Source: Clostridia bacterium (GTDB taxonomy: Bacteria; Bacillota; Clostridia; Christensenellales; CAG-138). Taken from it: DNA of 64,000 bases. This document shows, piece by piece, positions 21,505-58,435 of the stretch. The stretch lies in NCBI GenBank assembly GCA_017525875.1, contig JAFXSG010000048.1:1856-65855 (forward strand), given 5' to 3'. Position numbers and translations under genes: made by a program. The number at the start of each line of letters is the position of its first letter. Position 1 is the first letter of the stretch. The notes beneath the pieces were generated by a model. The model made no database searches. It worked only from the letters and a program-made list of their open reading frames with translations, and was not told where the DNA came from.

Positions 21505-21542
21505 TTTGATGATCCTCTTTCTTTTATTTTGAAGCAGATCCG

Positions 21543-22136: not shown

Positions 22137-22152
22137 AGAATAAGCCCTTTCG

Positions 22153-42698: not shown

Positions 42699-43709
42699 TC
42701 AATTCGGCTCGATCATCAGGATCAGTCCCGATCTTGATACGCTGTATCTCAGAGCGTTCGAACCAAACCCCGGGATCGTGTATGCCTTATGGGAATCGAT
42801 CAGATCCCGCTCGGCCTGTTCCGCAGAAGCTCTTGTCTTAAACTTCAAATAGAACTTTTTTGAATACCGGAGCTGCTGTGCGGCGATCGCGCTCGCCTGC
42901 TGGAACGAGTATCTGTCAAGAAACCACCCGCGGTACTTGAAATAATCGAACCTCTTGCCGAAGTTCTGCGGAATGAACTGCCCTGCGGCAATAACATGGG
43001 TCCGGAGCAGCTCCTGAAGATCCAGGCAGAAGAAATCATGCGACAGGTTGTCGCCGCCCGCGCCGTTCGTTACCCTCGGATCATCCCAGGTGACGTCGAC
43101 GAAGTAGTATCCGTCGCTGAGCTTTATATAGTTCCACTCATGGTCCACCGCACCGGTCCGTGCCGAACTCGACCTGCCCGCTACGCGGCCGCACTCTACC
43201 CCGATCTTCTGCATCAGGACCTGGAAGGCAGCCGCATACCCGGCGCAAACGGCGCGGCGCTGCACAAGGCAGCCGTAAGCATCGTAGCAATGCGGCTCTG
43301 CCTGCACGTAATCGACGTCGTTAACGATGCGGTCATGCAGATAAAGTATCTGCTCATAAAGGTCCGATGAGCTGCGCATTGCGTCTCTGACGTATCCGGC
43401 GGCGACGTTTTCCAGCTGCCGGCGCATTGCCGGGACGGCGGATAATGCGCATGCGAAGTTTGGCCTGAATTCCAGCGTTATACTGCTGCCGCGGGTCGTG
43501 GTGGTGCTGCTGCTTCCGTTTGAAAGCCAGAAGTATTCCGGGTGATCCCGAAGAACGGCCTTATAGACCCGCTTAACAAAATCGTAGTTTTGCTGCTGAA
43601 ATACCCAAACGGGCTTGTATGACTCTATCAGGCCGACGATCTCATTGTAGCACCTCTGCTCCGCAGCGGTCAGCGTCCCGCTGCCGTTTCCCGAGTTGTT
43701 GAAAAACAT
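42699..43709 (-). CDS. Transglutaminase-like cysteine protease-fold protein (no signal peptide)
   Basis: CAGYAAAFQVLMQKIGVECGRVAG ... DHEWNYIKL.DGYYFVDVTWDD (a Cys-His-Asp triad arrangement). It is the last gene of the operon. Confidence 0.75.
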   Translation of the reverse strand: MFFNNSGNGSGTLTAAEQRCYNEIVGLIESYKPVWVFQQQNYDFVKRVYKAVLRDHPEYFWLSNGSSSTTTTRGSSITLEFRPNFACALSAVPAMRRQLENVAAGYVRDAMRSSSDLYEQILYLHDRIVNDVDYVQAEPHCYDAYGCLVQRRAVCAGYAAAFQVLMQKIGVECGRVAGRSSSARTGAVDHEWNYIKLSDGYYFVDVTWDDPRVTNGAGGDNLSHDFFCLDLQELLRTHVIAAGQFIPQNFGKRFDYFKYRGWFLDRYSFQQASAIAAQQLRYSKKFYLKFKTRASAEQAERDLIDSHKAYTIPGFGSNALRYSVSRSGLILMIEPN

Positions 43710-43732: not shown

Positions 43733-43966
43733 TTACAGCATCAGCTTTATCTTGTGCAGGAAGTATATGCAGGCTTCCTTTTCGGTGCCGAACTCCATAA
43801 GCTCATATCTTCTCCCGCGTTCACCTCTGAACACGATCCACTTGCCGTTCTCCTCCATGATGCAAAGAGCTTCCTCGGCATAGCGGCCTATACCGCAGTG
43901 ACGGGGCGGCGCTCCGATTTTGACCAATGCCTGCTTAAGCAATTCGATATAGTTTACTTCTTCCAT
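43733..43966 (-). CDS. Small (77 aa) putative immunity protein for the TNT toxin
   Basis: AAGGTGA RBS. It starts 7 nt after the toxin stop. The call rests on position only. Confidence 0.5.
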   Translation of the reverse strand: MEEVNYIELLKQALVKIGAPPRHCGIGRYAEEALCIMEENGKWIVFRGERGRRYELMEFGTEKEACIYFLHKIKLML

Positions 43967-43973
43967 TCCGGGA

Positions 43974-44684
43974 TCACCTTATCTTCATCATTGTTCTGTT
44001 CGGGTTGTTCGGGTTGGACATTTCAGCAAAGCTCTGTGAAAAATGGTACTGCTGTCCGCCGCCGACTTCTCCGAAATTCGGGGCTGCCTTGCCGCTGGTG
44101 CAGTTCACCGGCTTTATGATCTGGTATTCGTGATACTCCTGGGAGTTCTCTTCATAAGGCAGCGACAGTTTCGAATGATCCGTCCCCACATCCGTTGCGT
44201 TGGATCCGAAGTCGCTCCCGTATCTGGCAATGACCTTGCCGGGTTCAAGCGTTGTTTCGTCTATCTTCTCGTTCTTGTCAAAGCCTTCCCCGTCGGAGTG
44301 CTTTGCATACGCGTCCCAGTCTATCGACCACTCGCCCGTCTCGTTGTAGTTTTCGCTGTATTTAATGTATTTCTCATCCTTAACGATCGGCACTTCCGGG
44401 ACAAGCTTGCCGTCCTTATTAAGGGCCGGTTCTTCTTTGGACTGTATAACCGTTTCTTCGCCTTTTTCGCTCTTGGTAAAGCTGACATCCGTCAGCAGTT
44501 CTTCTTCGTATTCATGCGGATCGTATCCGGGGTCGTACAAGTCCTTCTCGCTTTCATCCGTAAACAGATCGCTGTTTTCAGTTTCACCGCTCTCGATGCC
44601 GCTCTCAAAAGCTTCGCCCGAAGATTCGCCGCTTCCGCCCTGGCTTCCGTTATTGCCGGAATCTCCGCCTTCTTCGCCTGGCAT
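43974..44684 (-). CDS. TNT-domain (NAD+ glycohydrolase) toxin with an acidic disordered N-terminus
   Basis: GGGAGGAA RBS. The C-terminus IARYGSDFGS...KLSLPYEENSQEYHEYQIIKPV...GKAAPNFGEVGGGQQYHF matches the TNT consensus (RxG ... LP ... YxVxKP ... GxxAPxFGxxGGGxQ). Confidence 0.75.
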   Translation of the reverse strand: MPGEEGGDSGNNGSQGGSGESSGEAFESGIESGETENSDLFTDESEKDLYDPGYDPHEYEEELLTDVSFTKSEKGEETVIQSKEEPALNKDGKLVPEVPIVKDEKYIKYSENYNETGEWSIDWDAYAKHSDGEGFDKNEKIDETTLEPGKVIARYGSDFGSNATDVGTDHSKLSLPYEENSQEYHEYQIIKPVNCTSGKAAPNFGEVGGGQQYHFSQSFAEMSNPNNPNRTMMKIR

Positions 44685-44733: not shown

Positions 44734-45138
44734 TCAGATACGCGCGAACCTCGCAATGATATAGCCGTTCAGCTTCAGATTGGTCTCCGACAAGGTGTTG
44801 TTTCCGGGAATGAAGCGATAGACCTTGTCGTTGCTGTCAACGAGAATAAAATCCCAGTCTCCCCTGTCTTCAAGCGCGATCATGTCCTTCGTCTGCGGAA
44901 AACGTTTATGAAGGGAAGCCGTCCTCACGATCATGTCGGACTTCTCCATCTGTATGCTGTTGACTCCGTAGAATTCGATGTGACTGCAGCCAAGGTATCC
45001 GTAGTCGGTAATATAAGAAGCGAGCTGTTCTCCGATCCTCACGCCGACGAGTCTCTCCATTTCCGGTATGTACGACGCGTCCACCCTGTTGTAGGTAAAG
45101 TCCACGTCATTCTGATCAACAAACTCACTGAGTTTCAT
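44734..45138 (-). CDS. SMI1/KNR4 (SUKH-1) family immunity protein
   Basis: AAGGAGG RBS. It starts 2 nt after the nuclease toxin stop. YIPEMERLVGVRIGEQLASYITDYGYL is a SUKH-type N-terminal motif. Confidence 0.7.
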   Translation of the reverse strand: MKLSEFVDQNDVDFTYNRVDASYIPEMERLVGVRIGEQLASYITDYGYLGCSHIEFYGVNSIQMEKSDMIVRTASLHKRFPQTKDMIALEDRGDWDFILVDSNDKVYRFIPGNNTLSETNLKLNGYIIARFARI

Positions 45139-45140
45139 CG

Positions 45141-45923
45141 TTAAGCCTCCTTTGCTCTTGCCTTCCAGTGATCCGGGCGGTGATGGTTATTGTAGTAGTT
45201 CTCCTTCGTATTGTCGCTGCGCCAGCTTTCTTCCGCCTTTGTATGAAGCGTTGAATAGTGTTCCCCGTGTTCCGAATCCGCGGTCAGCTCCGCGAGCGGG
45301 GAATCGTATTCCTGCCCGATATGGTGCAGCTCTATTTGTTCCCCTGTTTTTGCATCAAACGGCGGACGGCCCTCTTCCATAAGCTGCCGATTGGTCATGC
45401 CGGTCTTGGGGTCGACGTAATCCATATCTATATCTTCCCTCACAAGGCAGGTACGCCCATCGACTTCGGTCTCCTTCAGGCCGGCGTTCTGATAGACCTC
45501 CAGCTCCTCCACCGAGGAGATATGATCGTTCACCTCGTCGGAATACTCGCTTTTCTCGTATATCTCGGAACGGTCCGCCTCTTCGTCCGTCTCGCCTTCC
45601 TCGGGCTGTTCTTCCTCCGGAGTTTCCTCCTCGGGCTGTTCCTCCTCCGGAGTTTCCTCCTCGGGCTGTTCCTCCTCGGGCTGTTCCTCCTCCGGAGTTT
45701 CCTCCTCGGGCTGTTCTTCCTCCGGAGTTTCCTCCTCGCCGTTCCCGTCGGACTTATCCATCAGGTCATCGTCGGCGCCTTCTTCGCCTTCATCCCCTTC
45801 GGGCTCCTCCGTTTCAACAAGATCGTCTTCCTCGCCGGGTTCTGAGGACTCATCCATTCCCTGTTCGGGATCATCGCTTTCGTTCGTGGAATCATAATCA
45901 TCTTCAGGGCACATTGCGTTCAC
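45141..45923 (-). CDS. HNH/EndoVII-fold nuclease toxin (LHH-type motif) with an acidic repeat N-terminus
   Basis: C-terminus KTGEQIELHHIGQEYDSPLAELTADSEHGEHYSTLH. The GTG start at 45923 overlaps the ATPase stop (GTGA), and an alternative ATG at 45914 has an AGGAAG RBS. About 120 N-terminal residues are D/E/P-rich. Confidence 0.7.
   Translation of the reverse strand: MNAMCPEDDYDSTNESDDPEQGMDESSEPGEEDDLVETEEPEGDEGEEGADDDLMDKSDGNGEEETPEEEQPEEETPEEEQPEEEQPEEETPEEEQPEEETPEEEQPEEGETDEEADRSEIYEKSEYSDEVNDHISSVEELEVYQNAGLKETEVDGRTCLVREDIDMDYVDPKTGMTNRQLMEEGRPPFDAKTGEQIELHHIGQEYDSPLAELTADSEHGEHYSTLHTKAEESWRSDNTKENYYNNHHRPDHWKARAKEA
45597..45737 (-). repeat. Tandem 30-nt coding repeats (EETPEEEQPE units) inside the nuclease toxin gene
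   Basis: Plus-strand unit ctcctcgggctgttc(c/t)tcctccggagtttc, iterated about 4.5 times. Confidence 0.85.
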
Positions 45924-48610
45924 TTCCTTTTGTTTATTCTTTCTTTGATATACACGCGCACCAGCTTTTCGCAGAGCTCGGGATCTGTATTCTTAAGGTC
46001 CCACGTCCGGATCAGGCAGTTCAGCATGCAGTTTTTCGCGTGCTGTCGTTCGACCGGATCCGAAAGGCCCATCTGCGCGTCAACAAAGCGCTCCATGCCG
46101 GTATCGATGGTCTTCACCACGCAGCTTTTGGTTACCGCCGGATCCAGCGACCTTGCAAACCGCCGGAAATCGTCCGCGCCGCCCTTCGTCCACAGTATCT
46201 CCTCCGGATCTTTTCTGCACAGACGGTCACAGGCCATGCAAAGCTTCGAACGCTTGTCCGTGAGCGATTCATAATCCTTGTTTCCTTCGGTGCTTATGCA
46301 GTTTTTCGCGGTTTCAAATAAAACCTGCTCGCGCGTTATTCTGTGTTTTCCGGGTTCTTCATACGAGCCTGCGAATTTGGGTTTTACGAGCTTCGGCCTG
46401 TTATCCCCCTCGGAATATACGGCGGCGACGCCCTGCCGGAGCGACGCAAGGCTGTCTATCTGCTCATCGGTCATGTGCATCGCTCCGCCGATAAGCATGC
46501 GCTCTTCTGCTGCGACCGTTCGGTGAACGATCTTCAGGTTGGTGTTCTTGATAAGGTCCGGAGCCAGTTTTGACGGGATCTGATCCGCAATGATGAAGCC
46601 CTGGCCCTTGCTGCGCAGTTCTGCAAGCAGATTGCAGAAGAATTCGACCGCTGCCCCGCGGGGATCCGCGTTTTCGCCCGAACCGCTCTGAACGTTTTTA
46701 AGCAGCCTGTGCGCTTCCTCGATCAGCATCAGATGCCTGACCTCAAGCTGGCAGTCCTCCTGCTGACGCCTGTACTCCAAAAGATTTACCAGCAGCAGGC
46801 TTATGATGAACGCCTTCACGTCGTCATCGCCGATATCCTCAAGCTCGATCACGACGCTGCCGTTCAGCAGCCGATCCATCGGGAATGAGCGGAGCACGTT
46901 CAGCGTGTCGCCCTTCGTGCCGAGCCGCATGGAGTTCACCCTCGCCTGCAGCGATCCGATCAGGTCGTTGCGCATCCTTGTATCGTAGCCCATCTCGTCC
47001 ACGATCTCCGGGATCGCATAATAGAGGTCTTCGATCGTAGGATAAACGTCCTTCCCGTTGGCGTTTCTGTCGTTATGAATATCCCAGCCATAGTCTTCGT
47101 AGATCTTGTAGATCGCCCTTTCGAGCACGTACGGCATTGGCGTGTACATTATGAAGCTGGCCTTGAACGCCGCGTAAACGAAATCGATATGAGTCTGTAT
47201 CGGTACGGTCCTGACGTTCCCGTTTTCGTCTTTGAAAGCAGCTCGCTCAAACGGATTGATGCAAAATCTGTGGGAATGCGGCCCGACGGAGCCGACGCTG
47301 TAGATCTGCAGGTCGGAATAACCGAGCTTATAGAGTTCCCAGTATTCCTTTTTGGCGGGTTCAATGACCATGAGCGGCCGCGAGGAACCCTTTGTAAGCT
47401 CGCAGATCAGGCTTTTCAAGGTGTTGGTCTTGCCCGAACCCGTAAGGCCGACCACCAGGCAGTGCCTGTTGAATTCATTTGCATCGATGCGATACGTGCT
47501 TTCGGTCTCGACCCCGGAATCGATGATCCTGCCGATGACAAGGTCTCCGCGTTCGCTCCTGTTTACGTCAAACTCCACGTAGTCGATCACCGAAAAACCG
47601 AAAGTATCGATCGTCGGAAGAGCGGCGTAGACTGCAAGCGCCTTACTGCTCAGCATCGTTGAATACCTCGGGTACTGAATGCCGCAATAGTTATCATGCA
47701 AAAACCGAAAACCGTTAACAAGCGGTTCCCTTATCGGGCGCATGCTGTAGATCGCGTGGACCGGTTCCGGCTCAGACTCGTCGCCATAGAACGCGGAAGT
47801 CAAAAGCCCGCCGAGCAAGCATGCGTTTTCTTCGGAATCGGAGCTGAAATTGATCGTTGTGCACCATTCTCCGGAGGCTATGCCCTCCGTCAGCCTTTCG
47901 CAGAAGGCCAATGCCTTTTTGATCAGCATCTCGCTGTGGGGGTATTGCTGCTTGTAGGCGACCGTTTCGAGATTGTTCTCCGACTCCGTGAACGATACTT
48001 CCGTCAGCATACTGTACTGGGATTCAAGGCGCGTCCAATCCTGCTGCTTTGCGAGCATGTCATCATTGTGCACCGGGATGGCAAAAAGCGAGAGTATCCA
48101 TGATCTTTGGCTCATGCCCTTTATCACGGAGTCGATCTGATAAACGTTTTGATAGTTTTTATTGCCGGTAGGATCGCCCTTCAGGAAACCGCCGTACACA
48201 CAGCTGCGGCCGTCGTCGATCTCCCTATATGCAAAGAGCCTGTCGCCGTTTTCTGTTTTTTCAAACCGGAGCTGAGGGAAGACGCCCGCGAGCATTTTTG
48301 AGAGGACCTCGAGCTTTTCAACGACCGTTCCGACGAACAGGGAAATGCGTTTCCCATCGCCCTTCAGGATGAATGAATACGGGATCCCAACGCTGTATAG
48401 GCCGACAAAGAAGCTGGACATAAGGCTCCATATAGGCGTTTCATCCGCGATCCACCGCTTTGAGATCTCGTTCAGCTTGATGTAGTAATATCCCTGCGTA
48501 TCTCCGGTTTCTGTGGTTTCGTCAGTTTGGGACATCGTCATTTCACGATTCATTATCTCGTAAAAAGAACCGATCTCCGCATTGCGTTTATTGATATCGC
48601 TTCTGTTCAT
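45920..48610 (-). CDS. HerA/FtsK-clade P-loop ATPase (DUF87-like) with large N- and C-terminal extensions
   Basis: Walker A HCLVVGLTGSGKTNTLKSL. Walker B RHLMLIEEAHRLL (the hhhhEEAH typical of HerA/DUF87). GFIIADQIPSKL ... NLKIVHRT. A C-terminal Cys cluster LCMACDRLC. Confidence 0.75.
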   Translation of the reverse strand: MNRSDINKRNAEIGSFYEIMNREMTMSQTDETTETGDTQGYYYIKLNEISKRWIADETPIWSLMSSFFVGLYSVGIPYSFILKGDGKRISLFVGTVVEKLEVLSKMLAGVFPQLRFEKTENGDRLFAYREIDDGRSCVYGGFLKGDPTGNKNYQNVYQIDSVIKGMSQRSWILSLFAIPVHNDDMLAKQQDWTRLESQYSMLTEVSFTESENNLETVAYKQQYPHSEMLIKKALAFCERLTEGIASGEWCTTINFSSDSEENACLLGGLLTSAFYGDESEPEPVHAIYSMRPIREPLVNGFRFLHDNYCGIQYPRYSTMLSSKALAVYAALPTIDTFGFSVIDYVEFDVNRSERGDLVIGRIIDSGVETESTYRIDANEFNRHCLVVGLTGSGKTNTLKSLICELTKGSSRPLMVIEPAKKEYWELYKLGYSDLQIYSVGSVGPHSHRFCINPFERAAFKDENGNVRTVPIQTHIDFVYAAFKASFIMYTPMPYVLERAIYKIYEDYGWDIHNDRNANGKDVYPTIEDLYYAIPEIVDEMGYDTRMRNDLIGSLQARVNSMRLGTKGDTLNVLRSFPMDRLLNGSVVIELEDIGDDDVKAFIISLLLVNLLEYRRQQEDCQLEVRHLMLIEEAHRLLKNVQSGSGENADPRGAAVEFFCNLLAELRSKGQGFIIADQIPSKLAPDLIKNTNLKIVHRTVAAEERMLIGGAMHMTDEQIDSLASLRQGVAAVYSEGDNRPKLVKPKFAGSYEEPGKHRITREQVLFETAKNCISTEGNKDYESLTDKRSKLCMACDRLCRKDPEEILWTKGGADDFRRFARSLDPAVTKSCVVKTIDTGMERFVDAQMGLSDPVERQHAKNCMLNCLIRTWDLKNTDPELCEKLVRVYIKERINKRK

Positions 48611-48661: not shown

Positions 48662-50032
48662 TCAAAACAATCCCAGTATCAGTTTCAGTATCACAAATAT
48701 AACGACTATCGTTACGATCGCCGATATCACTTTGGAGAGCACTCCGGAGAGCAGACTGCCTGCATTCGCTCCGAACCCATAAACTATCAGCATCGCGATC
48801 ACCAGTGATACCAGCAAAATGCCGACCAGCGGGAAACTTCGGCGTTTTCCCGAACTCATTCTCGAGAGCATGCCGATCTTCGAAAACGAGAACAGAAAGT
48901 ACAGCACCGTAAGGACCGCCGCAGTGATCAGCCAAGTGGTAAGCAGTTTGCCTAACTTATCGAAAAAATTCCCGCCGGCGCCGGCTGTCAATATGATGAT
49001 GAACGCAAGCACGGCGACGGCGAGTACAGCGTACATCGTGCCGCCGACGGACCGCTGAAAATTGACCGGGCTCCTGTATCCGTTGTTGACGACGTTGATC
49101 CTGCGGGCCATCAGGACGCCGTTTTTGTATTTGCCGCTGACCTCCACCTCGGAATTATCTGCGATCAGCGAGCCGCCCGAGATCGTTCCGTGTACGTTGA
49201 CCTCCACGTCCGTGTACTTCTCATTTCCGAACGTATCGACGCCTTCCGAAACCCGGACCTTAAACCTGTGCAGCAGATCCTCGGTCCTTTGGCCGTACAG
49301 CATTGCGTCAAACAGTTTTTGAGCGAACAGTCTGCGGTATCTTCCGCCTTCAATATCCGAATTGCTGTATTGGGATACCTTGCCCTTGATCTCCGTCGGC
49401 GGGAGCTTTGACTTGCCCATGCTGAACGGCAGCGGTTTTTCCCCGTTTGAGTTTGCCTGATCCGCAAGGCCGGTGTGCTGCGATCCGCTTGGGGTCAGCT
49501 GCCCTTTATCGTCTTTGCCCGTTGGCGTCAGCGGGGGCTGAACAGGCGCAGGCCAGACAGAGCCTCCTGTGTTCCGGCTGCCCCACGTCGGTTTCGCTGC
49601 GCTGCCGGAAGGCGTGCCGCCAAACGCGGAACTCCCGCCCGAAGGAGCGCCGCCGAACGCGGGATTCTTGCCGGAAGGAGCGCCGCCAAACGCGGAACTC
49701 CCGCCGGAAGGAGCGCCGCCGAACGCGGAACTGCCACCCGAAGGAGCGCCGCCAAACGCGGGATTCTTGCCGGAAGAAGCGCCGCTGAACGCGGAACTGC
49801 CGCCGGAAGAAGCGCCGCCGAACGCGGAACTGCCGCCCGAAGGAGCGCCGCCGAACACGGGAGCGCCGCCGGAACGGGTGCTGCCCGAAGGAAGGACCTG
49901 CCTGTTCGCAAGCAAGGCGTCCGGGACCATTTCTGTCTCCAGTTTAGCCGAGCAATAGGGGCAGTTGGTTTGAGTATGGTCCTTGGTATAGGGTCTGCCC
50001 GAACACTTTGGGCAATATTTTACAACGCTCAT
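48662..50032 (-). CDS. Zn-ribbon / xAFGG-repeat / four-TM membrane protein
   Basis: N-terminus YCPKCSGRP...NCPYCSAKL (CxxC..CxxC). Eight (S/P)AFGG-type repeats, a globular domain of about 150 aa, then four C-terminal TM helices. Confidence 0.8.
   Translation of the reverse strand: MSVVKYCPKCSGRPYTKDHTQTNCPYCSAKLETEMVPDALLANRQVLPSGSTRSGGAPVFGGAPSGGSSAFGGASSGGSSAFSGASSGKNPAFGGAPSGGSSAFGGAPSGGSSAFGGAPSGKNPAFGGAPSGGSSAFGGTPSGSAAKPTWGSRNTGGSVWPAPVQPPLTPTGKDDKGQLTPSGSQHTGLADQANSNGEKPLPFSMGKSKLPPTEIKGKVSQYSNSDIEGGRYRRLFAQKLFDAMLYGQRTEDLLHRFKVRVSEGVDTFGNEKYTDVEVNVHGTISGGSLIADNSEVEVSGKYKNGVLMARRINVVNNGYRSPVNFQRSVGGTMYAVLAVAVLAFIIILTAGAGGNFFDKLGKLLTTWLITAAVLTVLYFLFSFSKIGMLSRMSSGKRRSFPLVGILLVSLVIAMLIVYGFGANAGSLLSGVLSKVISAIVTIVVIFVILKLILGLF
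49598..49870 (-). repeat. Coding tandem repeats (GGAPSGGSSAFGG / GKNPAFGG) with core GCGTTCGGCGGC
   Basis: Plus-strand gccgcc(g/a)aacgc recurs about every 45 nt. Confidence 0.9.
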
Positions 50033-50034
50033 TA

Positions 50035-51612
50035 TCAGTTGCTGTCCTTTTTCGAATTATTGCCGCCGAACGCACCGCGGTTGCCGCCGAACGCACCGCG
50101 GTTGCCGCCGAACGCTCCGGGGTTGCCGCCGTTCCCGCCGAACGCTCCGGAGTTGCCGCCGAACGCACCGTGATTGCCGCCGAAAGCGCCGCGGTTGCCG
50201 CCGAACGCTCCGGGGTTGCCGCCGTTCCCGCCGAAAGCGCCGTGATTGCCGCCGTTCCCGCCGAACGCACCGTGATTGCCGCCGAACGCTCCGGGGTTGC
50301 CGCCGTTACCGCCGAATAAGCCCTTGCCGCTGTTCGGTTTTTCATCAGCGGAAGTGCTGAAGCTGATACGCTTGGTATCATTGTTGTTGTTCTTGTCTTC
50401 GGAAAGCTGTTTGAAGCCGCCGGGGCCGCCGTCTCCGCCGCCCGGTCCGCCGCCGACCGTTGTCGGCAGCTGTACGCCGGTCGAGACAGCGTAGCACAGC
50501 GTTCCCAGTACGACCGCCCACGCAAGGCAGAACATCAATCTCACCATCGAAACAGGCAGTATCCTTGACAGGAACTCCATTATCAGCGCGCCGCCGATGC
50601 AGAGCAGGATATACACAAGAACACTGTTATTCATAGTGCTTTTAATGTTCTGTGCTGCAAGTTTTTTCATCAGCGACCAGAAGACGCCGACTATTGAAAG
50701 GAAACCGATCCTCATCGCGCAGTACAGCCCGTCTTTCTCCATCATGAATCTTGCGGAAAGCAGGTTGCGCTCAAGGTTGTTGGACGCCGCCTTTTTCATG
50801 CTTGCCGCAAGGTTTGAGGCATCGTCGCAATAGACGTAGACGCCGCCGGTCAGGTTTGCGATCCTTTTAAGGAAACCTGAGTTGCAGCCTCCGAAGCCCA
50901 CGCTGCAAATCGAAACGCCGTTGGCAACGCAGTCTTTCGCAACGTCGCGCATACCGAAAGCGGAGCTCCCGCCGTCGCTGAAAAGGATTATCCTCGGTTG
51001 ATCGCCTGCGCCGGTGAGCTTACCTGAACGCAGATCATCCAGGACCGTTCTGACCGAACCCAGGATATTCGTTCCGCCGTATGACTGGAAGTTCAGTTGA
51101 GCGGCGTCGCCGGGAGCATATTTCCCCATACCCTTCAGCAGCGTGGCCCCGGACTCGAATTTATAAACGGCATAAGGAAGTTCTGCCGAATCCTTCATTA
51201 TCTCTTCGATGGCAGAGGGCCTTACGTTTGAGCGGTCGTTTCCCGCCATTGAGCCGGAATCATCGATCAGGAAGATGTATGAGGTCGGCCGGATATCGTT
51301 TTTTCCGCCAAGTTCATACAGGAATTCGAACACACCGGCCAGCAGGAACACCAGGATCAGAACAATGGCTAAAAGCCCGATCGATCCCTTGGTGTTGCGG
51401 GCGTTGTTTGTGTTGCTGAGATCGACCTGAAAATAGCCGCAGGCCGTTACGACAATGCAGAGGATGATCCCGAAGATCAGGAAATAAAGGGCGACGCCAA
51501 GCGGAGTGAACATTTTCTGCGTCAAGGTGTTGAACAGCAGCTCGCCCAGCAGCCAGAACACCACTCCCACTATCAATGATATCAGCGGCAGCTTGATTTT
51601 GTTCTCTTTCAC
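50035..51612 (-). CDS. Polytopic membrane protein with a central MIDAS-vWA domain and a C-terminal GAFGGN repeat tail
   Basis: GTG start. Three N-terminal TM helices. vWA domain YIFLIDDSGSMAGNDRS ... GGTNILG ... IILFSDGGSS, then three more TM helices and 11 xFGG repeats. Its stop is 2 nt from the next start. Confidence 0.8.
   Translation of the reverse strand: MKENKIKLPLISLIVGVVFWLLGELLFNTLTQKMFTPLGVALYFLIFGIILCIVVTACGYFQVDLSNTNNARNTKGSIGLLAIVLILVFLLAGVFEFLYELGGKNDIRPTSYIFLIDDSGSMAGNDRSNVRPSAIEEIMKDSAELPYAVYKFESGATLLKGMGKYAPGDAAQLNFQSYGGTNILGSVRTVLDDLRSGKLTGAGDQPRIILFSDGGSSAFGMRDVAKDCVANGVSICSVGFGGCNSGFLKRIANLTGGVYVYCDDASNLAASMKKAASNNLERNLLSARFMMEKDGLYCAMRIGFLSIVGVFWSLMKKLAAQNIKSTMNNSVLVYILLCIGGALIMEFLSRILPVSMVRLMFCLAWAVVLGTLCYAVSTGVQLPTTVGGGPGGGDGGPGGFKQLSEDKNNNNDTKRISFSTSADEKPNSGKGLFGGNGGNPGAFGGNHGAFGGNGGNHGAFGGNGGNPGAFGGNRGAFGGNHGAFGGNSGAFGGNGGNPGAFGGNRGAFGGNRGAFGGNNSKKDSN
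50056..50325 (-). repeat. Coding tandem repeats (GAFGGN[HRS/GGNP]) with core GCGTTCGGCGGC
   Basis: 21-30-nt units; plus strand gccgccgaacgc(a/t)ccg. Confidence 0.9.
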
Positions 51613-51663
51613 CGATCGTTCACCTTCCTATAAGTAATCGACGTTCCGGCAGATCCGCCGGAT

Positions 51664-51768
51664 GAAAAAACGTTTTTTCACAATCTATACCGAAAGCGCC
51701 GGTCAAGCACGGCGCATTCGGTATAGCTGTTTATGCGCGTCCGCGGCAAGCAAATGCCGCGGACGCGC
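51664..51768 (-). other. Three consecutive hairpins in the 169-nt intra-operon spacer
   Basis: A 14-bp perfect stem GCGCGTCCGCGGCA/TGCCGCGGACGCGC (51735-51768). A 10-bp stem CTATACCGAA/TTCGGTATAG enclosing an inner stem (51685-51726). The palindrome GAAAAAACGTTTTTTC (51664-51679). Confidence 0.7.
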
Positions 51769-51781
51769 CCGGTTGATGGTA

Positions 51782-54700
51782 TTATAAGTCTCCGGTCTCC
51801 TTGAGGTCCTCAAGGGCTTTTGCGAAAGCCTTGAAGTTGCCGATAAGCGTTTCTGCGTCGTTCGGCCCTGCGCACTTCTTCGGAATATTGTAATACTCGA
51901 AGTAATTGGAGGATGCAAGCTGCTTTCCGATATCCCTGTTCCTTGCGGCGATATCCCTCATTGTGAACAGAGACGAGTTAAGGGCGGCATTGATGTTGTC
52001 AAGCACGTCCTGGCAAGACGGCAGCTTGGCGCCGCGGTTCTTGCTCTGATAATCATCGCATGCCCTGTCTATCGCGTCGGTCACGACGTCATTCAGCGCT
52101 TCCCTGACGAAAGCGGAGAAGACGATAAAGTCCATAAAGGGAACGTCGATCTTCTCGTTCTTCTTCTTGTAGTCGTCGAGGAAGAGGATCGGCTTGTCGT
52201 GTTCGTTGGCGCTGTACGTGCAGAACCAACCCTTATCGGGATCATTGGAGATCATACCGCACTGCCTTGCCCTGATATAGTAGCTGACGTTCCTGTCGAA
52301 CTTCGAAACGCCGGCAAGGTTTTCGAACAGGTTCATGCTCTTATACTCGTTGTACTTCTCAAGCAGCAGCCTGTGCATGACCATATCGGAACGGACGATG
52401 CGGTAAATGTTCTTGAGGTCGAACCTGTTGCCCGGCATGTTGGTCTGCCTTGACTTAAGGCTGTCGTTATTGATAGCCCTTTCAAGCCGAATCTCCGAAT
52501 AATACTTATGATTGTCCTCAGCGTTGATGCTGTCAAGCGCGTCTTTCCAGGTGTGGTCGCCTCCTCCGCTCCGGAGCTCGACGATCTTCTTTTCGATCCT
52601 GTCGATGAATTCCGGACTGGTGTCCCCAAGGACGCAGACGACGTATTTGTTGGTTGGATCCGTGTAGATATACCCGTTCTCGAGACCGAATTCGACGATC
52701 TTTTTGATCTCGTCATACATCTCTACGTCGTTATTGAACACCTTGCCGTTCTTTATGCAGCGTTTATCGTCCTGGATACGCGCAGAAAACTCGGGCTTAT
52801 TGATCGTTTGAACAAAATAGTCCTCCGTATCCTTGCCGTAGATCTCGGGAAGGTAAGTCTGCCATTTTTCCGAGACCTCGTTCAGATGACGCCCGGCTGA
52901 ATTCGAGACCAGTTTTTCGGCATTGAAATACTCGGACGCATAGTCCTTCATGTTCCTGACCATCTCGGGGGAGAAAGGCCTGATGCATTCGAATTCGGAG
53001 ATCTCGGTAATGAGGCCGTCCGCTACGCTCGTGCTGTATCCGCCGGGATATCTTTGCATCAGCTCCGCTTCGATCTCACGGTTAAGGTTGGGAGTATCGG
53101 CCAGGAGCACGATGTCAATGGTTTTGTCAAACTTGTTGGCAGCGGTGGTCAGTCTTTCATCGAAGGCAATCAGCGCGCTGCCGGAGATGGTATCCACTAT
53201 TCTCACGGCAGCTTCACGCAGCGCGTTGTTCCGGAGAATAACATTATTCCAGATATTGTTCAAAGCCTCGATATCTATGGCCTCGTTATTGCCGTTGCCC
53301 CAGACGATCTGTTCCTTATTGCCGTATACGAGCACGACGAACTTCTCGAGCTTGTCCCCGATGATCGGCTGTATCGCGTCGCTGAACACATTACGGAGTT
53401 TATCACAGAGCAGATCGGGAGAATTGATATACGTCTGCCAGTTCCCGCGCTCGTCGGCGCTGAACAGCAGATCGGTCAGGTTATTCTGGATCAGCTGCAT
53501 AGTCTCGGGATCAGCTACCATGCCTTCGAACATCTTCTCGAACAAGTCGTTCCGTTCCATCGCGCCGTCCAGATTGAACGCGTTGAGTGAGAACACGGTG
53601 CGCCTTTCCTCATGCCTGAGATAGTATTTTGCGAAGATATCCGAATCCTCGTTCAGGATATCGGCAAGGTTCATTATGATCGGAGTGTAGATCTCGAAGG
53701 TCTCGTTGCTGTATGTGCGCAGCTGATTGATCAGCATCCCGATGAACTGCTGCATGTAATTGTTTATAAAGAGGCTGTCGAAATACGCATCCGAATATGC
53801 TGCGCACGCGCCGATAAAGGTTTCGACCTCCTCGTCATGCGGGTTGGAATCCTTCTGCAGAGTTTCTTTTGCGGCCTCAAGATTGTTCTGCTGCTGCGCA
53901 AGCGCTGTATTCGCTTGCGTGAGCGCGTCCGGAAGCGTGTTATAGATATCGGTAAGGATTCCGATAAGTCCCTGGATGTGAACGTTGCCGCCTCCGTCAG
54001 TACCTGCGAGGATGACGTTCGCGCCTACGGGGCCGTACTCCTCCCAAAGATTAGCCGCCCTGCCGTCAGGCATATAGAAAGCGCTCTTGCCCTCAAGGAG
54101 CTGCTGCACGGTATAAACGATGTTGGAAACGCATGTATCAAGGCCGGTCATGGAGTTTATCTTTATCTCCGCCGCTTCTTTCGCCGCCAGGATGGATTCA
54201 TCAAGGCCTTTCATCTTCCCCAGCCACTGTGTGCCGATCCTTTGAGGATACTTATCTTTTCCGATCCTTAAGCTCTGTGAGCTGATGCCCTTTTTGTCTT
54301 TGATCGAACGAAGTATGTCATGGGCCGAGTCGATACCGAGGCCGCCGGCGATATAGTGCGCGTCATCGGTGGTGAATTTGAACGCACGCTTATAGCGCTC
54401 AATGATCTGCGCAAACGCCTTGTTCGCGACGTACGCCGCCATCTCGTTCTTCGGCAGATACACGGAGCGGTAGCCGAACGAGGAGAAGGAGTTGTTCATA
54501 AACGCGGGGAAATAGGTATTCTTTATGCCGCAGGGATCCGGATCGACCCCTGCTTCGGGAATACCCACGACGTCCGTTTCCCAGGTGCCGACGTTTCTTC
54601 CGATATTGCACAGCGTACTGATGATCGACTGGCGCTTTGTTCTGTCAACTGCGTCGATCTGCCCCGGGCGGAACATGTTGAGGATGCTTTCGGCCACGCA

Positions 54701-55615
54701 CTCGATCGTCTCTTCAAACCTGTTGACCTGAGGCGTAGCGGAGACCATGAAAGCATACCCGCGCTTGAAGATCGGCTTGCTGCAGGTCCGTTCTCCGCCC
54801 GCCGGGTCTACAACGTGCAGCGTATATACCGGTTCTATCTCTGCCTCGCTGCCAACGTTCATAAAATAGCTGAGCTCCTTCATTGCCGCATAGCCGTTCT
54901 GCTGGACCGTTTTCCATTTAGCGGCATTCTCGCCGACTTCCGGAATGGATCTCTGAACGTCCGGAGTGTAGAATATGCCGTAAAGATTTGTCGATATGCC
55001 GTCTTCCAGGCCCAATTTCTCGAGGATCATCCTAACCATATAGGAGATATCGATAAAGGTGCCGCTGCCGGTGCCGCCGGAAATACCGGCGCAGATAACC
55101 ACTTCGATAATGCCGTTTGCGGAAAAGCCTTTGATCAGGTTTTTGATCGTTTTCTCAAGCGCGGCATATTTTTGAGTACCGCAGAGCAAAACACGGCCGA
55201 CTACACGCCTGCTCTTGGCGCCGGTCTCATCGATGATCTCCGAGGGCACGTCCGTACTCAGCCAGTCCTTGACGATCTCGGGCCGGTCGATGAGCAGGCG
55301 CTGTGAATCCTTATCATACAGCTCAAAGATCTCATTGACAACAATGTTGCCTCCGTTCTCCCGTTTCAAAGCCTTGACGTCGTTTTCGTCAGTATCTATG
55401 CACATGAACTTTACGTCAGGGTTCTGTTCAAACTTGGCCTCGTAGGCGCCTTTGATCTTGCTGACGGTCTGACAGCCCGCACCGCCGATGCCGATGAACA
55501 GTATCCTGCTGTTGGTGTTCAGCTTATGCCTGTTGACCTTGCCCAGAATGCTGCCGCCTTTTTTTACGGACAGTTCTTTGAGCAGTTCTCTTGCTTCTTC
55601 CTGTGTGATAGGCAT
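51782..55615 (-). CDS. Giant (1277 aa) tubulin/FtsZ-like GTPase-domain protein
   Basis: AAGGAGAAAG RBS. The N-terminal 230 aa or so carry ILFIGIGGAGCQTV (T1-like GxGGxG), CIDTDEND, ETGAKSRRVVGRV (T3-like) and VVICAGISGGTGSGTFIDISY (tubulin signature GGGTGSG). The remaining ~1000 aa are mostly helical-looking and unassigned. Confidence 0.8.
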   Translation of the reverse strand: MPITQEEARELLKELSVKKGGSILGKVNRHKLNTNSRILFIGIGGAGCQTVSKIKGAYEAKFEQNPDVKFMCIDTDENDVKALKRENGGNIVVNEIFELYDKDSQRLLIDRPEIVKDWLSTDVPSEIIDETGAKSRRVVGRVLLCGTQKYAALEKTIKNLIKGFSANGIIEVVICAGISGGTGSGTFIDISYMVRMILEKLGLEDGISTNLYGIFYTPDVQRSIPEVGENAAKWKTVQQNGYAAMKELSYFMNVGSEAEIEPVYTLHVVDPAGGERTCSKPIFKRGYAFMVSATPQVNRFEETIECVAESILNMFRPGQIDAVDRTKRQSIISTLCNIGRNVGTWETDVVGIPEAGVDPDPCGIKNTYFPAFMNNSFSSFGYRSVYLPKNEMAAYVANKAFAQIIERYKRAFKFTTDDAHYIAGGLGIDSAHDILRSIKDKKGISSQSLRIGKDKYPQRIGTQWLGKMKGLDESILAAKEAAEIKINSMTGLDTCVSNIVYTVQQLLEGKSAFYMPDGRAANLWEEYGPVGANVILAGTDGGGNVHIQGLIGILTDIYNTLPDALTQANTALAQQQNNLEAAKETLQKDSNPHDEEVETFIGACAAYSDAYFDSLFINNYMQQFIGMLINQLRTYSNETFEIYTPIIMNLADILNEDSDIFAKYYLRHEERRTVFSLNAFNLDGAMERNDLFEKMFEGMVADPETMQLIQNNLTDLLFSADERGNWQTYINSPDLLCDKLRNVFSDAIQPIIGDKLEKFVVLVYGNKEQIVWGNGNNEAIDIEALNNIWNNVILRNNALREAAVRIVDTISGSALIAFDERLTTAANKFDKTIDIVLLADTPNLNREIEAELMQRYPGGYSTSVADGLITEISEFECIRPFSPEMVRNMKDYASEYFNAEKLVSNSAGRHLNEVSEKWQTYLPEIYGKDTEDYFVQTINKPEFSARIQDDKRCIKNGKVFNNDVEMYDEIKKIVEFGLENGYIYTDPTNKYVVCVLGDTSPEFIDRIEKKIVELRSGGGDHTWKDALDSINAEDNHKYYSEIRLERAINNDSLKSRQTNMPGNRFDLKNIYRIVRSDMVMHRLLLEKYNEYKSMNLFENLAGVSKFDRNVSYYIRARQCGMISNDPDKGWFCTYSANEHDKPILFLDDYKKKNEKIDVPFMDFIVFSAFVREALNDVVTDAIDRACDDYQSKNRGAKLPSCQDVLDNINAALNSSLFTMRDIAARNRDIGKQLASSNYFEYYNIPKKCAGPNDAETLIGNFKAFAKALEDLKETGDL

Positions 55616-55635
55616 GTTTCTTTCTCCTTTGGTGA

Positions 55636-58233
55636 TTATTTGGTATATTGAATCGATACGTGGCTGACAGGCGTGTTGCCGTCGTTGTCCTTATCGCCCG
55701 CCTTTACCGAAATATCGATATTGATCGTCCTTCCATTCGGGTTAACAGTGGTCTTTTTCTTGAACCCGGGCTCATGGAACATCACCGACTTGCCGGAGTT
55801 CTTGATGATCGTTCCTCGCTTACCGAACGGAGCGGTGCCGCAAAGCATGACGCTGCTCAGCGTCGCCTTGAATGAACTTTCGACGAATTCTCTGACTTCG
55901 TCGTAGAGGATGCTGGTTTTGCCGTTTTCATTCATAGCCTGGCCGTACTTGGAGACGAATTCCTCAAGGACCGAATACAGCGATCTTTTCTTAAGCCTGC
56001 CGCTCAGCGAGACCGGCGTGTTGAATTGGTTGCTCTTTTGTTTTTCCTCCTCGCGCACTTTATCCTTAAGGTTATCGGTATTACTGCTGAAGAATCCGCC
56101 GTTCCGATCGGACGGTGTGGCTGCCTGTCCGCCGAACGCCGAGCCGCCGCCGAACGCCGAACCGCCGCCAAACGCAGAACCGCTGCCGAACGCCGAGCCG
56201 CCGCCAAACGCCGAGCCGCCAAACGCAGAACCGCCGAACGCCGAGCCGCTGCCGAATGCCGAGCCGCCTGTTGTGTTTCCTGACGGAGCCGCTGACTTGA
56301 ACGGGTCGTTTACGACGGGCGGTACTCCCTTCCCGGGCGCCGTCCTCGTCCTGTTGACCTGATGCTTACCATCGGGCATGGAATTTGGGTTGCGGTAGAC
56401 GTCTTCTTCGTTATGGAACGTGCCGGAACCGTCCACGCAGCCTTTTGCGAGCAGCAGCACTTTCATTTTGCCGGGAACGCGGATCGTTGCCCTGACGAGT
56501 GCGGAGACTATCGCCAGCGCTATGAGCGCGATGCCGAGGATTATGCCGATTATTATCGCAAGCGCTCCGGGATCGTCCACGCTGACCTTAAACGTTGATT
56601 CAACGGAATTGTTCTGTGCGTCCGTGAATTGCAGAGTGACGAGGGTGCTCGCCCACCAGCCCTTAACGCCGGTTATGTTCACCTTATCCCCGTCAATGGC
56701 AACGTCGGCAACGTCCGCCGGGGAAACGCTCTTTACGGTGACTTCCACAGGGTCGTTTTCCGCATCGTAAACGTACCGGAAGATATCGCTGACGGTAACC
56801 GTTTTGCCCTTTCTGACGCGGGTGTCGGGGATATCCTTAACAAGCTCCACGGGAGTGTTGCTTGACATGACCGTCAGGGTGTCTTCGCGATACAGGGTGT
56901 CCCATTCGAGCCTAATCTTTACGTCGTAAAAACTGTCTTCCGAGACCACAAAGCTCCCGACGAACGATCTGCCGTCGCGCTGCAGGTCGAGCACTCTCGT
57001 ATCGTCAGGGTTCGCTCTTGAAACGATGGTCGCTTTCGCGGAGGTTACGCAGTCGTAGATCTCGTCGTTCTCGAGAGCGGCGTCGTCGTAAGTCAGCCAG
57101 GTCCTGATCCCGACAACGTCGTTCGTATACGCAACGCCTACGGGGTTGCCCTCCGGGAAAACGAGCTGGCTGGTGAGGTTCATTTTATAATGCTCCAGCA
57201 GGCCGATGTGGATATCGTCCCCCTGAATGTTGCTGACGGAAAGCAGCCATGTGCCGGGCTGAGGCATTATGACCTTTATGCTTGCCGCAGTCACGTCCGT
57301 ATCGAAGCGGACGTTGCCGGAGTTGGCCAGCTGGACCTCTCTGCCGCTGGGATCGAACAACCTGATCTTGCCTTCTTTAATGGCGTTCGGGTTGCCGCCG
57401 GAAATGCGGATATTTGCCTCTATAACGCTCGGGTTGATGGGTATCTCGCACTGGTGGGCGCCGCCGTCGCCGGGGATCACGCCTACCGGCAGATAGATAA
57501 GATCACATTCCTCCGCAAGCAGATCGATGAAAAGCTGCTCGATCTCGCCGGTGCTGTGTATCGCGCGGAACGATCCGCCCGTGCTTTCCGCAATATTGCT
57601 GAGCTTTTTCAGGCCTTCTCCGTCCGCGCCCATCGAGCTTTCGCCCGAGGAAGTTATATAGTCGTATCCGACGCAGTAAATATGGCAGTTGTTGCTCTTT
57701 GCCCACTTTATCGCATCGACCTCGTTTTCCTCGCAAGCGGCAAGCGCGAGCAGATTATAGCCAAAGTCGTTCACGCCGTCGGTGAACAGGATGATCGCCC
57801 TTGCATGATCTTCGTCCGAACAGCTGTTGAGCAGATCGGTCGCGGCAAGCACCGCGTTGCCGATGCCCGTATCGCCCTTGTACTTGATCGAATCGACCGC
57901 GCTTCGGACCGTTTCGATCCCGGTAAACTCCTGCAGTGCGATCAGCGCGGGGTTGCCCGCATGGTCCGTCGTCAGGATCGTCGGATCCGTGTTGAAGCTG
58001 ATGATGCCCACACGGCTGTCCTGCGCCGGCATCATATTGACGAGCATCCTGATGGCTGACAGAGCTGTTTTTTCTTTATCGGAATGCAGCATCGATCCGC
58101 TGGAGTCGATGACGACCACCAGATCCAAAGGCTTATACTCTTTTTCGGTCTCCAATTCTTCCGCAAAGCATTCGAATGCTGTGAAAGTCAAAAACAGCAG
58201 GGCTAACAAAAGAGCGGCTATCCTCTTCATCAC
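55636..58233 (-). CDS. Signal-peptide MIDAS-vWA protein with Ig-like region, single TM and a cytoplasmic SAFGG-repeat tail plus C-terminal domain
   Basis: Signal peptide MMKRIAALLLALLFLTFTAFECFA. vWA domain LDLVVVIDSSGSMLHSD ... GDTGIG ... IILFTDGVND. TM helix ALAIIIGIILGIALIALAIVSALV followed by RATIRVPGKMK. Eight SAFG repeats and a 160-aa C-terminal domain. Confidence 0.85.
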   Translation of the reverse strand: MMKRIAALLLALLFLTFTAFECFAEELETEKEYKPLDLVVVIDSSGSMLHSDKEKTALSAIRMLVNMMPAQDSRVGIISFNTDPTILTTDHAGNPALIALQEFTGIETVRSAVDSIKYKGDTGIGNAVLAATDLLNSCSDEDHARAIILFTDGVNDFGYNLLALAACEENEVDAIKWAKSNNCHIYCVGYDYITSSGESSMGADGEGLKKLSNIAESTGGSFRAIHSTGEIEQLFIDLLAEECDLIYLPVGVIPGDGGAHQCEIPINPSVIEANIRISGGNPNAIKEGKIRLFDPSGREVQLANSGNVRFDTDVTAASIKVIMPQPGTWLLSVSNIQGDDIHIGLLEHYKMNLTSQLVFPEGNPVGVAYTNDVVGIRTWLTYDDAALENDEIYDCVTSAKATIVSRANPDDTRVLDLQRDGRSFVGSFVVSEDSFYDVKIRLEWDTLYREDTLTVMSSNTPVELVKDIPDTRVRKGKTVTVSDIFRYVYDAENDPVEVTVKSVSPADVADVAIDGDKVNITGVKGWWASTLVTLQFTDAQNNSVESTFKVSVDDPGALAIIIGIILGIALIALAIVSALVRATIRVPGKMKVLLLAKGCVDGSGTFHNEEDVYRNPNSMPDGKHQVNRTRTAPGKGVPPVVNDPFKSAAPSGNTTGGSAFGSGSAFGGSAFGGSAFGGGSAFGSGSAFGGGSAFGGGSAFGGQAATPSDRNGGFFSSNTDNLKDKVREEEKQKSNQFNTPVSLSGRLKKRSLYSVLEEFVSKYGQAMNENGKTSILYDEVREFVESSFKATLSSVMLCGTAPFGKRGTIIKNSGKSVMFHEPGFKKKTTVNPNGRTINIDISVKAGDKDNDGNTPVSHVSIQYTK
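56128..56268 (-). repeat. Coding tandem repeats (GGSAFGG) with core GCGTTCGGCGGC
   Basis: Plus strand gccgccgaacgccgagcc / gccgccaaacgcagaacc, in 18-24-nt units. Confidence 0.9.
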
Positions 58234-58407: not shown

Positions 58408-58435
58408 ATTATATCATATCATTAGGCAGAGTCAA
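58408..58435 (-). promoter_or_regulatory. Near-consensus sigma-A promoter of the ten-gene operon
   Basis: On the minus strand: TTGACT (58435-58430), 16-nt spacer, TATAAT (58413-58408). This implies a leader of about 170 nt before the ATG at 58233. Confidence 0.6.

Follow-up and report, generated by a model that had tools for sequence, protein, structure and literature searches.

We describe an operon of a Clostridia bacterium in which three membrane proteins, here designated A, C and D, each carry a low-complexity tract of repeated Phe-Gly (FG) motifs. The DNA analyzed, referred to below as the window, is a stretch of 64,000 nucleotides from the Christensenellales lineage CAG-138 (GenBank assembly GCA_017525875.1, contig JAFXSG010000048.1, positions 1,856 to 65,855 of the forward strand); its own numbering is used unless another locus is named. 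Comparison with related loci shows that the conserved property is the presence of Phe-centered motifs on tethers of the three subunits that are predicted to be disordered and cytoplasmic, not freedom from charge. Our reading of this feature, which we put forward tentatively, is that the tracts are multivalent Phe-centered arrays on which a cytoplasmic protein docks; the tubulin-like protein B encoded in the same operon is the probable partner.

Three membrane proteins share Phe-Gly tracts

The tracts contain 27 xF(G/S)G units in total. Eight lie in D (gene at 48662..50032, minus strand, 456 residues; tract at 49610..49867, residues 56-141), 11 in C (50035..51612, minus strand, 525 residues; tract at 50056..50328, residues 429-519) and eight in A (55636..58233, minus strand, 865 residues; tract at 56119..56271, residues 655-705), exactly the numbers given in the original prediction, which was made from the letters of this DNA. 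The units are of the type SSAFGGAPSGG in D, one LFGG and ten (G/P)AFGGN in C, and SAFG(G/S) in A. The tracts span 86 (D), 91 (C) and 51 (A) residues, 73-77% of which are G/S/N/T/P/A/Q; Phe recurs once per 10.8, 8.3 and 6.4 residues, respectively, and other hydrophobic residues number zero or one in each. None of the tracts contains Asp or Glu, and the A tract has no basic residue either; four Lys/Arg and three His occur in the C tract and two Lys in that of D. No other open reading frame (ORF) of the 64-kb window reaches at least five FG per 60 residues.

At the DNA level, each tract corresponds to an in-frame tandem array detected by Tandem Repeats Finder. The D array (49604-49874) consists of 8.2 copies of a 33-bp unit, with a 99-bp higher-order block (91% matches); the C array (50060-50305) combines units of 21 bp and 30 bp, with a 93-bp block (87%); and the A array (56129-56268) comprises 8.1 copies of an 18-bp unit, within an 18/15-bp pattern. 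The predicted common core is present in all three: the 12-mer GCCGCCGAACGC occurs 10 times, against 0.06 expected, and exclusively within the arrays (3, 6 and 1 copies). When up to one mismatch is allowed, 24 of the 25 plus-strand matches in the window still fall inside the arrays. All 27 Phe codons are kept, although TTC and TTT both occur.

The tracts are predicted to be cytoplasmic and disordered

Topology was read by eye from the sequences and their hydrophobic segments, with a positive-inside count, and is a prediction throughout. Protein A begins with a signal peptide (residues 1-25), followed by a vWA domain (residues 37-219) with an intact metal ion-dependent adhesion site (MIDAS), a beta-sandwich region and a single transmembrane (TM) helix at about residues 561-585; beyond this lie a conserved juxtamembrane segment, the FG tract and a domain at residues 715-865. 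Because A has a signal peptide and RATIRVPGKMK follows its only TM helix, its tail, including this last domain, would be cytoplasmic. Protein C has three TM helices, a vWA domain (residues 113-267), three further TM helices and a tail that bears the tract. Its predicted inside loops (the N-terminus MKENKIK, the loop between TM2 and TM3, and the loop KKLAAQNIK between TM4 and TM5) hold eight Lys/Arg, versus two in the two short outside loops; on this count the vWA domain would lie outside the cell and the tail, which comes after three more helices, inside. Protein D starts with a four-Cys zinc ribbon (residues 1-50), lacks a signal peptide and carries a KRR loop between TM2 and TM3; its first 325 residues are for these reasons assigned to the cytoplasm. 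On this reading all three tracts lie in the cytoplasm and both vWA domains face outward, in agreement with the original prediction. The DxSxS motif of the MIDAS reads as intact in both vWA domains (DSSGS in A; DDSGS among the visible motifs).

The opposite orientation would make the tracts extracellular, wall-spanning Gly-rich linkers, and Gly/Ser-rich repeats are indeed frequent in wall-associated proteins of Gram-positive bacteria. We regard this arrangement as extremely improbable: it conflicts with the signal peptide and juxtamembrane RATIRVPGKMK of A, with the eight-to-two distribution of Lys/Arg in C, and with the zinc ribbon, missing signal peptide and KRR loop of D. The passages of Kaur et al. 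that describe a polytopic protein of this kind also put its vWA domain outside the cell (PMC7159879).

An AlphaFold model of D was built from 17 sequences. Predicted local distance difference test (pLDDT) scores are 88-95 for the zinc ribbon and fall to 32-43 for residues 51-208, so the model predicts that this whole segment, FG tract included, is disordered. It is followed in the model by a beta domain (residues 210-325; window 49058-49405) and four TM helices (residues 329-455). Pfam has no match to D; by structure, the beta domain resembles PriB/SSB-type OB folds (Foldseek probability 0.99-1.0, target TM-score 0.55-0.61).

Phe motifs recur on the same subunits of related loci

Scanning 185,579 species genomes yielded 77 loci, and the full A-B-C-D-E core was found in 14 distinct related loci. 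Gene order is constant in the related loci examined: A, B, C, D and E, then toxin and immunity genes. We define a near clade of 13 loci in which B is 30-80% identical (L001-L003, L005-L008, L010-L012 and L081-L083). The B homologues, about 1250-1300 residues long, come from metagenome-assembled genomes of gut and rumen Clostridia. A scan of metagenome contigs returned just distant tubulin-domain relatives and no further near-clade loci.

In the near clade, every recovered A, C and D protein has spaced Phe/FG motifs (weak in L082) in a polar linker at the same position, and the linker sequences are unrelated apart from these motifs. The original prediction would have been contradicted by orthologues without tracts, but those in these 13 loci do bear them. 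In the ten loci that were quantified, Phe makes up 4-15% of the linkers, with the exception of C in L005, and FG counts exceed the expectation from composition in most tracts (for example, 14 versus 4.3 and 7 versus 1.5). The C protein of L005 (13839-15332) has an aberrant hydrophobic C-terminus (TMLLKVMTGSPMRLL...) that resembles a frameshifted repeat tract, and may reflect an assembly error or a genuine frameshift of an FG array.

The flavor of the motif is specific to the genome and common to its three proteins: AFGG in the window, (N/S)PFGG in L010, (S/D)PFG(D/S) in L002, L006 and L083, G(V/L)FG in L011 and GFG in L012. Individual loci carry GAFGG in fewer units (L081), (S/D)xFGG and four copies of SPFGSGGD (L083), PAFGN and AAFGN (L001), (S/T)PFGD and DPFSD (L002), DAFGG and GFGD (L005), (N/D/S)PFG (L006), G(I/L)FG (L003), GGFG (L008), G(V/L)FG(N/S) (L011) and GFGFG (L012). 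L010 has tandem repeats of its own, seven of NPFGGS(A/T)SAAGT and five of SPFGGTNT(S/P)GAP. Charge is not conserved across these tracts, which range from 0 to 30% Asp/Glu. Those of L010 and L011 are nearly uncharged, and five lineages have acidic tracts (11-30% Asp/Glu in L002, L005, L006 and L012, and L083 by inspection). An uncharged, nucleoporin-like cohesive composition, which the original prediction had noted as an analogy, is accordingly not the conserved property.

A far clade (L018, L019, L030 and L036) lacks FG tracts; its tails are short, charged and Phe-poor, and the cytoplasmic tail of A is replaced by a different sequence. These loci retain the ectodomain of A at 41-56% identity, D at 31-52% and E at 48-55%, whereas B is only 22-24% identical and, in three of the four, cannot be aligned past residue ~930, that is, over its C-terminal third.

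More distant A-B-C systems occur in Erysipelotrichaceae, Thomasclavelia and Lachnospiraceae. In the loci whose A/C tails were viewed (L015-L017, L022, L023, L025, L026, L034, L048 and L051), many A and several C homologues end in short acidic Phe peptides such as DDFDDFTF, DDDFMGG and DDDFFNDF, which, judged by sequence, may represent an ancestral single-copy docking motif. The additional genes in the distant A-B-x-C systems of L016 and L025 gave no GTPase match in Pfam. The D family is rare: in a set of 1.84 billion representative proteins it forms 76 clusters (50% identity). Its linker is present in 59 of 59 representatives; 14 have at least 6% Phe and nine at least three FG, and other linkers have DPF or WG repeats or are without aromatics. 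One member, P0152, has the Trp-Gly motifs WGWGN, PGWGN and TGWGD instead of FG repeats. Zinc ribbons are also found fused to the N-terminus of tubulin-like orthologues (P0013, P0016 and P0053).

The arrays expanded independently and vary in length between strains

Outside the repeats, GCG (0.41), TTC (0.68) and GGC (0.60) are the top codons for Ala, Phe and Gly, so that codon usage alone would encode AFGG as GCCGCCGAACGC with P ~0.10. The exact 12-mer is found in 10 of the 22 AFGG units, and these are mostly tandem copies of one another. The array periods differ (33 bp in D, 21/30 bp in C and 18/15 bp in A), and identity between arrays is 62-74% over 38-61 nt. Because the periods are unlike, cross-identity is low and the 12-mer consists of preferred codons, we reject recombination or gene conversion among the three arrays and conclude from these sequence comparisons that they are independent expansions encoding one peptide motif. 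The original prediction had proposed the shared core as a substrate for slippage or recombination. Its first element is consistent with the variation in unit number between near-identical strains; the 12-mer does not stand as evidence of exchange between arrays.

Repeat number is variable, as had been suggested. Ten strain variants of D, 414-458 residues long, have four to eight units between identical or nearly identical flanks, and five of the ten match the window at 99-100% identity across their last 261 residues. Members of the 90%-identity cluster of C (470-525 residues) have 4, 5, 8 or 11 units. The C allele of the window is the largest seen, and no D variant exceeds the eight units of the window. 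Since all unit lengths are multiples of 3 bp, slippage alters tract length only; all 16 complete variants are in frame and none is without a tract, and phase-variable on/off switching was rejected on these grounds. The exact D sequence occurs on nine contigs, which speaks against a one-off assembly artefact, although possible repeat collapse in short-read assemblies is a caveat to the unit counts.

Docking arrays, cohesive phases and other explanations

If the tracts are docking arrays, disordered cytoplasmic x-F-G arrays would hang from three membrane subunits of one envelope-spanning complex and together form a kind of "velcro" by which a cytoplasmic partner, most likely the giant tubulin-like GTPase B, is recruited to the membrane or kept there. 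The same complex would also hold the ATPase E and serve the downstream toxins with acidic leaders. In the lineage of the window, in-frame replication slippage would have amplified the motifs into AFGG tandem repeats, with unit number drifting between strains and the Phe-Gly core and a minimum of ~4 copies being kept. A motif flavor that is genome-specific and common to three proteins is the expected product of co-evolution with one shared ligand. The residues around Phe are more alike within genomes (cosine similarity 0.57) than between them (0.41; permutation p ~2e-4). The lack of conservation of charge suggests that the motif was selected rather than a cohesive composition, and a far clade that combines the absence of FG tracts with a strongly diverged B points to B as the co-evolving partner, an identification that derives from phyletic correlation. 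That the tracts bind and do not gel, that B is their partner and that the system exports toxins are all inferences.

Arrays of this kind have a eukaryotic parallel. In the endocytic adaptors Eps15 and epsin, DPF, NPF and FxDxF repeats engage folded hub domains at low affinity and with high avidity. Common to both are many three- to four-residue Phe motifs in a disordered, often acidic region, and the orthologues in L002 and L006 have literal DPF and NPF/SPFG repeats, as in endocytic arrays. The endocytic arrays are eukaryotic and cytosolic, and their hub domains are known, whereas the arrays described here are borne by membrane proteins.

Several findings weigh against docking. The AlphaFold model of B residues 420-1277 (pLDDT 80.6) has no fold match in the PDB (best E = 0.11), and these C-terminal 858 residues contain no recognizable FG-binding fold such as HEAT or karyopherin repeats; a profile search of PDB sequences likewise found nothing. 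A karyopherin/HEAT-like fold in B was therefore set aside, and the binding that we predict draws no independent support from the B model. The overall amino-acid composition of the tracts is itself more alike within genomes (cosine 0.865 versus 0.78), so part of their within-genome likeness reflects shared composition. In L082 the Phe motifs are weak only, and in about three-quarters of the D-family representatives the linker is not Phe-rich. Short-read assemblies can collapse repeats, and the L084 contig ends within its A and C arrays. Finally, the tracts of the window fit the composition of cohesive FG domains, and gelation in this lineage could occur.

This last point underlies a different explanation, in which the ~27 FG motifs per protomer set, multiplied by oligomerization, form a nucleoporin- or PEX13-like meshwork at the cytoplasmic mouth of the complex that gates or concentrates toxins. 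The tracts of the window resemble the GLFG domains of Nup98, Nup100 and Nup116 in being disordered FG arrays with uncharged G/S/N/A/P spacers, arranged around a transport machine; they lack Asp/Glu, are anchored on the same side of one membrane complex, and have one FG per 6-11 residues, a density similar to or higher than the ~1 per 12 of Nup98 (PMC9918544). The tracts of L010 and L011 are likewise nearly uncharged, and the YG domain of PEX13 provides a precedent for an aromatic-Gly phase as a membrane conduit (PMC9795577). Against this stand the length of the tracts (51-91 residues, versus 500-700 in native Nup98-type FG domains; PMC9918544), the fall of copy number to four in near-identical strains and the acidic tracts of five orthologous lineages, since a single Asp in each repeat is enough to abolish phase separation of the Nup98 type (PMC9918544). 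The bacterial motif is AFGG rather than GLFG, and no homology to nucleoporins is implied. Of the hallmarks of Nup98, disordered low complexity (in the D model) and at least one FG per 12 residues are present here, but charge depletion does not extend across orthologues (the window itself has no Asp/Glu), which tolerate many acidic residues. The toxin leaders, moreover, are 23-52% acidic with few aromatics, and the published rules for FG phases would have acidic, aromatic-poor sequences excluded rather than enriched; acidic leaders even occur beside acidic tracts. Together, the Nup98 rules and the acidic orthologues imply that a cohesive gel cannot be the clade-wide function. We therefore consider such a phase unlikely, although the uncharged, FG-dense tracts of this particular lineage could be cohesive. 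Like the YG domain, the tracts are aromatic-Gly low-complexity regions of integral membrane proteins associated with protein translocation; in PEX13 the aromatic residue is Tyr and the domain is proposed to lie within the conduit, whereas here Phe-bearing cytoplasmic tails are spread over three subunits (PMC9795577). An extension of the idea, which strikes us as quite improbable, is that the tails form a selective layer resembling that of nuclear pores or PEX13 at the inner face of a previously unrecognized Gram-positive toxin-export machine, with a giant tubulin-like scaffold, a HerA/FtsK motor and toxins threaded or admitted by their polyanionic leaders. If true, it would be the first case in bacteria of protein translocation that employs an FG-type phase.

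The tracts might also be passive spacers, flexible entropic linkers shaped by slippage and GC-rich codon bias in which Phe has no specific role. Such linkers would explain why unit number is highly polymorphic, why the D-family linker is hypervariable, with many members lacking Phe, and how the far clade works without tracts. They would not explain the recurrence of Phe, at 4-15%, at the same positions of three proteins across unrelated tract sequences, the excess of FG over compositional expectation in most tracts, the retention of all 27 Phe despite synonymous variation, or a flavor that co-varies among the three proteins, and we judge them distinctly unlikely. A more active role at the membrane can be imagined, in which the spaced Phe residues enter the inner leaflet and assist the tubulin-like protein in bending or remodeling the membrane. 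The tracts are tethered close to the membrane, and membrane remodeling has been predicted for the association of Tubulin_2/FtsZl1 with vWA proteins (PMC2875224). This appears very improbable to us, however, as the Gly/Ser/Asn-rich tracts show no amphipathic periodicity, their acidic versions would be repelled by anionic bacterial lipids, and in D a folded OB-like domain intervenes between tract and membrane.

The operon appears to encode a variant Tubulin_2-vWA system

The tightly packed operon runs on the minus strand from 58233 to 42699. A strong promoter-like site at 58408..58435 on the same strand (TTGACT-16-TATAAT with an extended TG; 11 of 12 matches), ~175 nt upstream of gene A, is likely the operon promoter, judging from its sequence. 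Gene B (51782..55615, minus strand) encodes a cytoplasmic giant tubulin/FtsZ-like GTPase of 1277 residues, with a Tubulin_2 domain at residues 39-405 (PF13809, E = 7.4e-43 in Pfam) and an 850-residue C-terminal region predicted to adopt a novel fold. Gene E (45920..48610, minus strand; 896 residues) encodes a P-loop ATPase of the HerA/FtsK/VirB4 class (DUF87) with a 350-residue N-terminal extension; Pfam matches are PF01935 (E = 2.9e-13) and FtsK_SpoIIIE (1.3e-5), and HerA, VirB4-like and DUF87 proteins are among its matches in PDB sequences. We designate E a putative translocation motor.

The five-gene core A-E is conserved and, as judged by domain content, an apparently undescribed variant of Tubulin_2-vWA systems. 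PADLOC and NCBIfam gave only generic HerA/VirB4/CedD-like matches for E, none for A-D and no system name, and we found no description in the literature searched of this gene combination or of bacterial FG repeats. Operons that pair FtsZl1 (Tubulin_2) with vWA proteins were predicted to be membrane-remodeling systems in the account of them given by Makarova and Koonin (2010; PMC2875224). The description by Kaur et al. (2020; PMC7159879) of GAP1-N2 GTPase systems in Firmicutes includes a pair of tubulins and a pair of vWA proteins, of which one is polytopic and has its vWA domain outside the cell, and for related tubulin-vWA systems proposes a role in abortive infection or conflict. The present operon shares with these systems a Tubulin_2 protein, adjacent membrane-associated vWA proteins with a MIDAS, occurrence in Firmicutes and a predicted membrane assembly; the two-vWA module with a polytopic, extracellular-vWA member is common to it and the GAP1-N2 systems as the latter are described there (PMC7159879). 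It differs in having a single tubulin-like gene and, in place of the other components, a HerA/FtsK-class ATPase, a protein combining a zinc ribbon, OB-like domain and four TM helices, and toxin-immunity cassettes. Searches of its eight to nine proteins with Pfam, NCBIfam and PADLOC revealed no divergent GTPase, OmpA-like protein or kinase. GAP1-N2 systems are characterized by GAP1-N2 and TRAFAC GTPases and by two tubulins with coiled-coil tails, whereas here there is one tubulin-like gene and no GTPase match in Pfam. In the portions of the two papers that treat these operons, a HerA/FtsK ATPase, toxins and FG tracts are not mentioned for them (PMC2875224, PMC7159879).

Toxins with acidic leaders follow the core genes

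Directly downstream of the core lies toxin 1 (45141..45923, minus strand). Its first 4 nt coincide with the last 4 nt of gene E, and it consists of an acidic disordered leader and an LHH HNH/EndoVII nuclease domain. It is followed on the same strand by a SUKH_5 (SMI1/KNR4) immunity protein (44734..45138), by toxin 2 (43974..44684), with an acidic leader and a TNT domain of the NAD+ glycohydrolase type, and by an unannotated 77-residue ORF (43733..43966) immediately downstream of the TNT toxin, which from its position is likely the cognate immunity gene. The cluster ends with a transglutaminase-like protein (42699..43709, minus strand; NF045980-like match, E = 1e-23). L003 has such a gene at the equivalent place (22085-23146; weak Transglut_core match), and by sequence resemblance the last ORF of L011 (21731-22729) would be transglutaminase-like too.

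The toxin N-termini are highly acidic, as had been noted: Asp/Glu make up 52% of residues 1-120 in the LHH toxin and 28% of residues 1-100 in the TNT toxin. Leaders of 60-250 residues with 23-52% Asp/Glu occur downstream of E at every near-clade locus for which this region was recovered and at two far-clade loci; examples are encoded at L001 19333-19980 and 20419-21078, L002 19181-20287, L018 8440-9402, L019 19454-20203 and L083 19482-20681. They contain a recurring motif, (D/E/T/S)-E/D-L-(Y/F), as in TELYDE, SELYTD and DELYEE, represented in the window by NSDLFTDESEKDLYDP and EDDLVETEE, which on sequence grounds is a candidate export or recognition signal. Pfam found no match in the leaders, and hence no known trafficking domain (LXG, RHS, PT-TG or signal peptide). 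The LHH leader is also encoded by a tandem array (45598-45738; in-frame units of 15/45 bp, 9.4 and 2.5 copies, encoding PEEEQPEEET), indicating that slippage-driven low-complexity expansion is not confined to the FG tracts. The L083 leader contains DLFG and ELFGG motifs as well. We rejected electrostatic matching of leaders with FG tracts because orthologues pair acidic tracts with acidic leaders; the earlier proposal that leaders partition into the tracts thus finds no charge complementarity across lineages. The OB-like domain of D adjoins an ATPase of the DNA-pump class and toxins with polyanionic leaders, and the idea can be raised that the leaders mimic nucleic acid.

The toxins are exchanged between loci (L082 has a WHH/colicin-DNase, and the toxins of L002 and L083 are unannotated), and the arrangement of a C-terminal toxin domain beside an immunity gene, with toxins that vary from locus to locus, is that of polymorphic toxin systems, of which LHH and TNT domains and SUKH immunity proteins are typical. 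As in type VIIb secretion systems (T7SSb, with EssC and LXG proteins) and type IV secretion systems (T4SSs) with their coupling proteins, a pumping P-loop ATPase is encoded beside membrane components, with toxin-immunity pairs directly after. Pfam found no WXG100, LXG, EssB, EsaA or other Ess family match, however, and E has a single DUF87/HerA-type ATPase region; acidic disordered leaders replace known trafficking domains, and neither T7SSb nor T4SSs have an equivalent of the giant tubulin-like protein or of the vWA ectodomains. Taken together, E directly upstream of the toxins and overlapping the first of them, an OB-like membrane protein, two vWA ectodomains and variable toxin-immunity cassettes suggest that the cluster is a toxin-delivery machine. 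The motor of such a machine would be E, and toxins would be recognized or threaded by means of their polyanionic leaders. By analogy with related systems, a role in abortive infection or conflict is an alternative (PMC7159879). TIR genes lie beside the system in L002 (20771-22738) and L082 (2514-3809 and 5616-6881), as annotated by Pfam, and L006 has a gene that appears TIR-like by eye (21457-22542); upstream in L002 are a NACHT/WD40 gene, a kinase and a PP2C phosphatase. These TIR-bearing neighborhoods are a conflict-island context.

Disordered regions with arrayed Phe-Gly motifs typify the transport machines of eukaryotes, namely nuclear pores, the analogous YG phase of peroxisomes and the hubs of endocytic adaptors. 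The feature described here is a bacterial variant of such multivalent aromatic-motif arrays, for which we found no bacterial counterpart described in the literature searched. Since the arrays sit on three subunits, co-vary in flavor and change in length, they offer a compact, genetically tractable model for aromatic-motif organization. We regard the cluster that encodes them as a strong candidate for a novel toxin-delivery or conflict system of gut and rumen Clostridia. Such a role would also provide a function for the FtsZl1-vWA module, which has been enigmatic since it was first noted in 2010.

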